DNA of 64,000 bases from Escherichia coli (GTDB lineage Bacteria; Pseudomonadota; Gammaproteobacteria; Enterobacterales; Enterobacteriaceae). This document shows, in pieces, positions 21,614-22,125 of the stretch. Within the stretch, counting starts at the first letter, position 1; each line of letters opens with the position of its first letter. The stretch lies in the NCBI RefSeq assembly GCF_044324875.1, contig NZ_CP172185.1. One strand, 5' to 3'. The position numbers were made by a program, and so were the translations under genes. The notes beneath the pieces are model-generated. The model ran no database searches, had not been told where the DNA came from, and saw only the letters and a list, made by a program, of their open reading frames with translations.

Positions 21614-22125
21614 TCAACGAGGTTTTCTGTCTTTTCGTCGGTCATTCAGCATCATTAAACGGGTCTCTGCCTCTTTCTGTTCCTGTGGTGTCACTTCCCC
21701 GCACGGCTGACCGTTCAGGTTGTAACGGGCGCCACCTGCTATTAACGCACGGTAATAGCGCGGAGACTGCACATAAGACGCCACTGCTGCATGTAATGTA
21801 CCAGCGCCAAACGCCAGTTCTCGGATGGCGATATCCTGTATCAGGTCGTCAGGTATCCCCACTTTAAGTGGTTTTGTTTTTTTCCCGGTTGAATGACTCA
21901 GGCCAGAGTTCCACAAGACGAATAATGCGCTTACGGTTTTTGCTCTGGCGTTTTGTCATGTCGCCACGGTGTTTTATCAGCAGGTTTCTGTTTATCGTTC
22001 AACTGTGGTATCTGGTCACCGGCCTTCATTTTGTATGCTGTGTCCGTTTTATCCTGCAGCGGCGTTGCCGGTGATTTACTGAAAATACCCTGCGGTTTAC
22101 GGTTAATGGTCAGAGTTACCATCAA
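21614..22125 (-). pseudogene. FinO/ProQ-family RNA-binding protein gene, split between two frames
   Basis: ORF 21614-21916 carries a ProQ/FinO-like core (KPLKVGIPDDLIQDIAIREL...LNGQPCGEVTPQEQKEAE, cf. ProQ RPLKIGIFQDLVDRVAGE...LDGNPCGELDEQ); the basic N-terminal part (MVTLTINRKPQ...) is in ORF 21931-22125 in another frame. Confidence 0.5.

Follow-up and report, generated by a model that had tools for sequence, protein, structure and literature searches.

In an Escherichia coli contig (NZ_CP172185.1), the parts of a ProQ/FinO-like protein lie on the minus strand at positions 21614 to 22125 of the 64,000-nt stretch of DNA that was analyzed here (hereafter, the window), but they are distributed over different reading frames. 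This layout raises the question of whether the locus is a gene broken by frameshifts, the remnant of a plasmid gene, an artifact of sequencing, or the source of a small FinO-domain protein that is still made. As argued below, it is very likely that window positions 21614 to 22122 correspond to a pseudogene of a mobile-island FinO/ProQ-domain RNA-binding protein, inactivated by two lesions.

Reading frames and family assignment of the locus

The features of the locus and its surroundings are listed in Table 1. When intact homologs were aligned with the window using tblastn, three collinear high-scoring segment pairs (HSPs) were obtained, one per frame, i.e., frame -2 from 22122 to 21937, which covers the N-terminal extension, frame -3 from 21959 to 21873, and frame -1 down to 21617. 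ORF A, 64 aa long when counted from its TTG start, is rich in Lys, Pro, Gln, and Thr and carries a net charge of +5; its true start is likely the ATG at 22122. ORF B, in the third frame, encodes 31 aa (MTKRQSKNRKRIIRLVELWPESFNREKNKTT, followed by a stop) and bridges ORF A and ORF C, supplying the FinO domain with its first helix (RIIRLVELWPESF). ORF C encodes 100 aa from a TTG start, in a frame that differs from that of ORF A. No single open reading frame spans the complete FinO domain, with ORF A now terminating at TAA 21933..21931 and ORF B at TAA 21866..21864. The alignments indicate that the three ORFs are parts of a single gene, which two lesions have divided among three frames, and the length of the pseudogene (509 nt) is what remains of the 510 nt for a reconstructed ancestor of 169 aa after the loss of 2 nt and the gain of 1. 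Nothing comparable to the Shine-Dalgarno-like motif that precedes the ATG at 22122 was found at the internal starts ATG 21959 and TTG 21916, and no second copy of the gene was found within the window.

Table 1. Features of the pseudogene locus and its neighborhood, in window coordinates
Feature	Position	Strand	Basis or remark
YagK/YfjJ_C + REP_ORF2-G2P (inovirus Gp2-like, Rep-like) protein	18882..19613	(+)	PF11726 5.2e-35; PF23343 9.4e-10
AlpA-family regulator	20611..20847	(+)	Pfam PF05930 E=2e-10 and annotation
182-aa gene convergent with the pseudogene	21048..21596	(+)	PF27752 UCP030791 in sister loci
Inverted repeat with arms of 17 nt and a loop of 7 nt	21566..21606	(.)	Located 8 nt past the pseudogene stop
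ProQ/FinO-family pseudogene, whole	21614..22122	(-)	PGAP pseudo label on identical sequence; three collinear tblastn HSPs
ORF C, rest of FinO domain (helices 2-4, beta-hairpin, C-terminal helix)	21614..21916	(-)	Pfam PF04352
ORF B, basic linker and FinO-domain helix 1	21864..21959	(-)	ORF list; Pfam gain; helix H58-73 in model
Lesion 2, A7 homopolymer	21877..21883	(-)	Alignments with intact alleles
ORF A, N-terminal extension	21931..22125	(-)	ORF list; alignment with N termini of intact homologs
Lesion 1, one AT unit missing (CATG in place of CATATG)	21957..21960	(-)	Alignment with ST131 and MIN11
Shine-Dalgarno-like GAGG motif	22134..22137	(-)	Upstream sequence inspected; 11 nt 5' of ATG 22122..22120
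Degenerate IS1 transposase remnant, upstream of the pseudogene	22525..23217	(-)	PGAP, collinear SCU-115 and SMS-3-5 loci

ORF C matches the Pfam family PF04352 (ProQ/FINO) with a score of 62.3 bits against a cutoff of 27, over profile positions 23 to 107 of 109, and ORF A and ORF B, taken singly, gave no match in the Pfam search. Repair of both lesions yields a protein of 169 aa, for which the PF04352 match rises to 74.3 bits and extends over profile positions 6 to 107. Searching the PDB by sequence retrieved the N-terminal domain (NTD) of ProQ (5NB9; 1.8e-10), NMB1681 (3MW6; 1.9e-9), RocC (7RGU; 5.9e-8), FinO (1DVO; 6.3e-7), and also Lpp1663 (6S10). Judging from these matches, the locus belongs to the ProQ/FinO family.

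An AlphaFold model was made on the repaired 169-aa protein, for which no such ORF is actually present, with an alignment of 64 sequences. The modeled protein comprises helices at residues 58-73, 90-101, 107-118, 121-129, and 146-166 and strands at residues 132-134 and 140-143, with a pLDDT of about 57 to 89 in the core and below 50 for residues 7 to 50; the N-terminal extension is predicted to be disordered. A Foldseek search of the PDB with this model returned 26 top matches, each with a probability of 1.00 and all of them to NMB1681, FinO, RocC, or Lpp1663, while the matches ranking below these were noise. The repaired protein is thus predicted to adopt the FinO-domain fold, a helical core with a beta-hairpin, which it would have in common with NMB1681 (3MW6), Lpp1663 (6S10), and RocC (7RGU).

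In the structure of RocC bound to RocR, residues Gly52, Tyr87, and Arg97 make the pocket for the 3' nucleotide, and Arg75 is the main N-cap contact, at a position that is Arg in about 80% of the family and otherwise mostly Lys, i.e., highly conserved although not defining (PMC9674577). As read from the HMMER alignment to RocC and ProQ, all three pocket residues have equivalents in the window, and all three lie within ORF C: the beta-turn Gly in LKVGI for Gly52, the Tyr in SPRYY for Tyr87, and the Arg in GGARYNL for Arg97. The Arg75 position is occupied by His in the window allele (GTLHAAV), whereas the clade consensus is Arg (GxLRAAV); His is also found at this position in an intact long form (P0012).

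Among solved structures, the NTD of E. coli ProQ is the best sequence match, and it shares the motifs PLK(I/V)GI, RY, and GxxR(V/Y)xLxGxPCGE with the locus. However, ProQ is encoded by a vertically inherited core gene and contains a linker and a C-terminal domain, whereas the reconstructed protein ends just past the FinO domain, has PF04352 alone, and derives from a broken copy on an accessory island. The core location, linker, and C-terminal domain expected of a ProQ ortholog were therefore not found here.

A previous reading of the window, made from the sequence alone, had described a basic N-terminal part and a ProQ/FinO core in two minus-strand ORFs of different frames. The charge of ORF A and the PF04352 match of ORF C (E=4.9e-17) bear out both parts, but with ORF B in between, the frames number three and the lesions two. 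The same reading had suggested that a frameshift inactivated a FinO-like gene, which agrees with the frameshifted label given by PGAP to the identical sequence and with the alignment to intact alleles. This alignment, proposed there as the means to locate the frameshift, places the two shifts at 21957-21960 and 21877-21883. Nor do the ORFs prove unrelated to one gene, since ORF A aligns with the extension and ORFs B and C with the FinO domain of homologs of 158 to 185 aa.

The two lesions, their alleles, and the intact relatives

The lesions were mapped by comparison with the intact 158-aa form of ST131, the 114-aa forms of OkiPb and MIN11, and the A6 allele. Lesion 1 moves frame A into frame B and severs the basic N-terminal extension of about 55 aa from the core; as a consequence, frame A runs into TAA 21933..21931, and the ATG at 21959..21957 survives. 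Lesion 2 consists of one extra A (A6 to A7), with GGGAAAAAAAC in the window compared to GGGAAAAACC in relatives; at this site, intact alleles contain either A6C (Thr) or A5CC (Pro). The extra base moves frame B into frame C after helix 1 of the FinO domain, so that frame B ends at TAA 21866..21864. Over the core region, the sole difference between the A6 allele and the window is one A at 21877-21883, as observed in the DNA of three loci (L008, L009, and L011), and the 114-aa database protein that these loci encode (P0022) is 100% identical to the repaired core. Because the core is identical to that of the A6 allele but for the extra A, sequence decay alone is no proof of lost function.

Further alleles complicate the history of the two lesions. 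The relative CUVET21-1780 bears an additional 1-bp deletion, and a metagenome contig (L030) is a mosaic in which a MIN11-type 5' half (CATATG and the 5-nt duplication described below) is joined to an A7 3' half. This mosaic indicates that alleles recombine and that the order of the two lesions cannot simply be read from them; strict nesting of the lesions, which was the expected order, is contradicted by it.

PF04352 was the sole Pfam domain in all 242 homologs, most of which have 158 to 185 aa, and the intact homologs in this size range are hosted by E. coli, Shigella, Salmonella, and Citrobacter. The ST131 copy, for instance, is an uninterrupted 158-aa protein (WP_001522303.1). The extensions of intact homologs align with ORF A through the motifs LTINRKP, QDKT, and TPWRH, just ahead of MTKRQRKNR, and homologs of 55 to 97% identity are in frame at the A-tract site, with A5CC or A6C. 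Among the intact homologs, which are under purifying selection, dN/dS was 0.12 to 0.37 in the core and 0.18 to 0.44 in the extension, and hence both parts are translated and constrained. Together with the lengths of the homologs and the ribosome-binding motif present solely at the long-form start, these values support the long form as ancestral. No experimental characterization of the intact island clade was found in a full-text literature search and in the review PMC9977716.

Sister alleles keep an intact 114-aa core ORF. In MIN11-type alleles, a 5-nt CTGCT duplication cuts off the extension and leaves this ORF, an independent loss of the extension in that lineage. With their 114 aa, the sister alleles match NMB1681, Lpp1663, and RocC in "domain-only" size, and the description of a stand-alone FinO-domain protein fits them.

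The distribution of these alleles was determined in 5426 complete E. coli genomes, 1199 of which matched an 851-nt region; the 1518 matching places were all chromosomal, with none on plasmids. The exact 71-nt segment containing A7 was present in 348 of the 5426 genomes, and the exact 2-bp-deleted junction of lesion 1 was present in 369, compared to only 2 genomes with the A6 version. In public metagenome contigs, a pattern scan that permitted 4 to 11 bases at the tract detected A7 in 16 of 16 matches. By the standard of tract-length variation among otherwise identical copies, the A-tract is not hypervariable.

The identical sequence is tagged by PGAP as "ProQ/FINO family protein," pseudo and frameshifted, in strains SMS-3-5, PKF11, and SCU-115, with boundaries that equal window 22122..21614. 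The RefSeq/PGAP pseudogene ECSMS35_RS30170 of E. coli SMS-3-5, which is 100% identical and has the same boundaries, is the same entity without any difference. The pseudogene was therefore already known and is present in RefSeq annotation.

Island context and alternative explanations

Positions 514-26734 of the window are collinear with E. coli SCU-115 at 98.5% identity. In SCU-115, the core genes from gdhA to ynjB give way to a mosaic island, on which a CbtA/YeeU toxin-antitoxin pair, antirestriction and DUF932 genes, and a GTPase precede the module of the pseudogene. In addition to the YagK/YfjJ-Rep-like protein and the AlpA-family regulator, this module encodes a 190-aa protein, listed between the Rep-like gene and AlpA, and the 182-aa convergent gene, which PGAP names either "YagK/YfjJ domain-containing" or "hypothetical"; a Pfam scan of the window copy of the latter (21048..21596) gave no match. 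The IS1 remnant, whose window coordinates were transferred by offset from the collinear loci, is marked "frameshifted; internal stop" by PGAP at the SCU-115 and SMS-3-5 loci. The same module (YagK/YfjJ-Rep-like, AlpA, and UCP030791-like) flanks intact alleles; it is a CP4-57-like island module in a chromosomal integrative context. The island is accessory, being found in just 867 to 1199 of the 5426 genomes. Remoter long-form homologs (55 to 63% identity) occupy another integrative element, in the order AntA/Bro-N, DUF4222, DUF927 or D5_N primase-helicase, SSB, FinO-like gene, and PerC.

An RNA element was also sought near the locus. The inverted repeat at 21566-21606 overlaps the 3' end of the convergent gene and folds with -32.9 kcal/mol (z = -3.1), and it may represent a putative shared 3' stem-loop. 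It was considered as a partner RNA but was not retained, since its stable fold comes with a sequence that overlaps the convergent coding region and is invariant across 6 relatives, in which no covariation was detected. The sole Rfam match in all 64 kb was an ALIL element at 27070-27186, with none near the pseudogene; a tRNA search found none, and a promoter and terminator scan of 21000-23000 gave no excess over chance.

The plasmid origin that had been proposed from the sequence alone would make the locus the remnant of a conjugative-plasmid finO, or of a fopA- or pcnR-type gene, integrated in the chromosome. Homology to FinO at the family level is consistent with this idea, and FinO/ProQ genes of plasmids and phages are on record as having been repeatedly captured by chromosomes (PMC9977716). 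In particular, FinO of F-like plasmids (1DVO) shares the FinO domain with the locus (E=6.3e-7 by sequence; Foldseek probability 1.00), its build is similar to that of the intact relatives, with about 160 to 185 aa and a basic N-terminal extension before the domain, and like the pseudogene clade it is encoded on a mobile element. However, its identity is just about 25 to 30%, and its extension is helical, whereas the extension here is predicted to be disordered and the window copy is frameshifted; FinO lies on a plasmid, while the pseudogene is chromosomal and island-borne, with no tra genes in the annotated neighborhood. Neither the plasmid tra/finP location nor the high identity of an F-plasmid FinO ortholog was thus found. 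Some plasmid proteins of Morganella, Providencia, and Yersinia do align over 85 to 95% of length, yet at about 30% identity, and genuine plasmid FinO-like proteins in general are about 27 to 40% identical, mostly about 30%. In PLSDB, 3 records exceeded 80% identity, one of them a 4.8-Mb "plasmid," and the rest reached about 40% at most. Given that 0 of the 1518 E. coli matches are on plasmids and that the neighbors are island genes (AlpA, YagK/YfjJ, and IS1) instead of tra or rep plasmid genes, a plasmid remnant is extremely improbable, and a recent plasmid origin is not supported by these comparisons. A phage origin was also discarded, as it had weak partial matches alone (26 to 42% identity). 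The gene belongs to the horizontally spread family branch that is termed "eclectic" in PMC9977716.

The remaining alternatives concern the integrity of the gene itself. Homopolymer indels are the commonest sequencing error, and the split might accordingly hide an intact gene; however, the identical 71-nt A7 segment recurs in 348 complete genomes, which were produced by many laboratories on many platforms and include SMS-3-5 from 2008, as well as in the 16 independent metagenome contigs, and lesion 1 lies outside any homopolymer and is found in 369 genomes, which leaves practically no room for a sequencing or assembly error. The stand-alone FinO-domain protein that had been put forward as the other option in the sequence-only reading would be a minimal product of ORF C, translated alone from TTG 21916 to 21614 (100 aa). 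Minimal FinO-domain proteins exist (NMB1681 and Lpp1663), some gene callers called comparable truncated ORFs (P0116 and P0117), and ORF C is an open frame with a significant Pfam match that retains the pocket Tyr and Arg. Nonetheless, its Pfam match begins at profile position 23 and thus leaves out domain helix 1 (H58-73 in the model), its first 11 residues are out-of-frame junk, its TTG start has no Shine-Dalgarno motif, and PGAP handles the locus as a single pseudogene. Since ORF C alone comes without helix 1 and without a ribosome-binding site, this option is hardly credible for the window copy. A somewhat less remote, although still very unlikely, scenario is that the A7 tract acts as a switch or a leak, with a 114-aa FinO-domain protein still being made in some cells through RNA polymerase slippage (mRNA with one A less), +1 ribosomal frameshifting, or reversible DNA slippage, the last of which would amount to phase variation with A6 on, A7 off, and A9 on. 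Lesion 2 does affect a homopolymer, for which alleles with runs of A5, A6, and A7 exist and an in-frame A9 is implied by one database protein (P0067, "REKKTKP"), and apart from the extra A the core shows no damage when compared with the A6 allele. Infrequent slippage of E. coli RNA polymerase occurs on A/T stretches of some seven or more bases. However, seven A's are short for a contingency locus, and the length of the tract is stable, A7 being present in 348 genomes and in all 16 metagenome contigs, as opposed to 2 genomes with A6. No shift site or two-frame architecture is conserved among the homologs; the shift is lineage specific and confined to one near-identical allele, homologs of 55 to 97% identity read through with A5CC and have no conserved recoding signal, and the absence of the frameshift from all diverged homologs argues against recoding. 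The A AAA AAC heptamer at lesion 2, which also serves as the slippery site of IS1, lies in register with frame B for a -1 shift, but such a shift leads into the closed frame A (ending in PGKKQNHLKWGYLTT and a stop) and not into frame C, and -1 programmed frameshifting was thus rejected. In addition, ATG 21959 has no Shine-Dalgarno sequence, and a further deletion has accumulated in one relative.

Probable course of the decay and proposed role of the intact relatives

If the locus is a pseudogene, as we consider very likely, its history may be outlined as follows. The ancestral gene would have encoded about 169 aa, translated from ATG 22122 behind the GAGG ribosome-binding site, and its product would have consisted of a FinO domain (about 114 aa) preceded by some 55 aa of basic, disordered N-terminal extension. 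Loss of the AT unit from CATATG would have detached the extension, with frame A stopping at 21931, and the change from A6 to A7 would have caused translation from ATG 21959 to end at TAA 21864 after 31 residues. With the two lesions combined, ordinary translation would yield no product containing a complete FinO domain. The shortest path for the homopolymer would run from A5CC (Pro) to A6C (Thr) by a C-to-A change that lengthened the run and from there to A7C by slippage. The broken allele may then have spread with its island through neutral hitchhiking, which would explain the ratio of A7 to A6 (348:2); alternatively, this ratio could reflect selection that favored either loss of the gene or its being switched off.

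By analogy with plasmid systems, the RNA ligand of the intact relatives is probably a transcript encoded by the element, bound at a terminator-type hairpin and its 3' tail, and they probably tune the replication or maintenance module of their own element, as FinO, FopA, and PcnR do for plasmids. The window copy would have lost this role. This proposed role is drawn from domain homology and gene neighborhood. FopA and PcnR are plasmid FinO-like proteins that repress the replication of their own replicon (PMC9977716), and like the intact relatives they are FinO-domain proteins of mobile elements that adjoin replication or maintenance genes. However, FopA and PcnR are on plasmids, whereas the intact relatives are on integrative islands, and the analogy is one of context, with plasmid FinO-like proteins as a group being about 30% identical. 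If the intact relatives do act like FinO, FopA, and PcnR, RNA-chaperone control of mobile elements would extend from plasmids to chromosomal islands. A more far-reaching proposal, which we regard as a very long shot, combines both ideas: the island long-form FinO-like proteins would constitute an RNA-chaperone clade controlling integrative elements, with the A-tract as a slow on/off switch. Were this true, CP4-57-like and primase-helicase/PerC-type elements might have their replication, excision, or maintenance governed by the clade via an element-encoded RNA, and in the A6/A7/A9 tract the frequent A7 "pseudogene," rather than being junk, would represent an OFF state favored by selection.

The intact relatives represent a widespread FinO-domain family on Enterobacteriaceae mobile elements, beside replication and regulatory modules, and the functional question belongs to an intact allele, such as WP_001522303.1 of ST131, and not to the window copy. 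The pseudogene itself is ordinary and of little import, as it is already flagged by the reference annotation. It does illustrate cleanly, if on a small scale, how a gene can decay in steps, in that a substitution would have lengthened a homopolymer that then slipped.

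Setting of the FinO-like gene within the island

The chromosomal island adjoins ynjB at the end that carries the usual CP4-44/CP4-57-type accessory block, the position of which was assigned by collinearity with the E. coli SCU-115 locus (L007), where the DUF4942 gene is frameshifted. No tRNA genes were found across the whole 64-kb window. A segment of approximately 1.3 kb (window 26735-28043) is missing from the otherwise collinear SCU-115 locus and contains an ALIL pseudoknot, a frameshift element of IS3-family transposases; this segment is thus an IS3-family insertion. Closer to the FinO-like gene, the island stretch carrying IS1 and transketolase fragments is a graveyard of remnants, a setting in keeping with a FinO-like gene that is itself decaying neutrally.

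Features of the island and of the comparison locus L005
Feature	Position	Strand	Basis or score
CbtA/YeeU-type toxin-antitoxin pair; DUF4942; DUF957; DUF987; JAB/RadC-like; antirestriction genes	window about 8400-12000		collinearity with L007
Inverted repeat, 17-nt arms	window 21566-21606		two perfect ACAGCGCTGT palindromes
Degenerate IS1 transposase (frameshift and internal stop)	window 22525-23217		annotation of collinear genomes
Short transketolase fragment	window about 23277-23453		annotation of collinear genomes
ALIL pseudoknot (Rfam RF01497)	window 27070-27186	+	116 bits
FinO-like locus, MIN11-type allele	L005:1499-2045		E. coli MIN11

An inverted repeat at the convergent 3′ ends

The FinO-like gene converges with the UCP030791-like gene, and the inverted repeat, formed by two palindromes spaced 31 nt apart, lies between their 3′ ends and overlaps them. 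Its predicted fold is stable (z = -3.1), and its sequence does not vary among relatives. The repeat may be a stem-loop common to the two 3′ ends, or it may be a site for protein binding.

Diverged homologues in a distinct integrative element

FinO-like homologues sharing 55-63% identity are present at positions 5001-5537 of six loci from E. coli, Salmonella salamae, and Citrobacter braakii (L012-L017), in an integrative element distinct from that of the window. Gene order in this element is conserved, i.e., DUF4222, a DUF927 or D5_N primase-helicase, (SSB), the FinO-like gene, and PerC or a small ORF. No experimental study of P0111, one variant of this group, was found in the literature searched; P0111 has entries in more than 4000 blocks of the public assembly index.

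Further alleles of the FinO-like gene

P0067, a 104-residue E. coli homologue encoded on a 5.08-Mb contig, reads ...SFNREKKTKPLK, which implies, from the protein sequence, an in-frame A9 version of the A-tract (three A more than the in-frame A6 allele, or two more than the A7 of the window). This A9 tract may be a frame-restoring expansion, or it may reflect an assembly error. In MIN11-type alleles, the N-terminal extension of the family is disrupted by a 5-nt CTGCT duplication, which is an independent event. Metagenome contig CDYI01052375.1 (L030) is a recombinant between a MIN11-type allele and the A7 type of the window.
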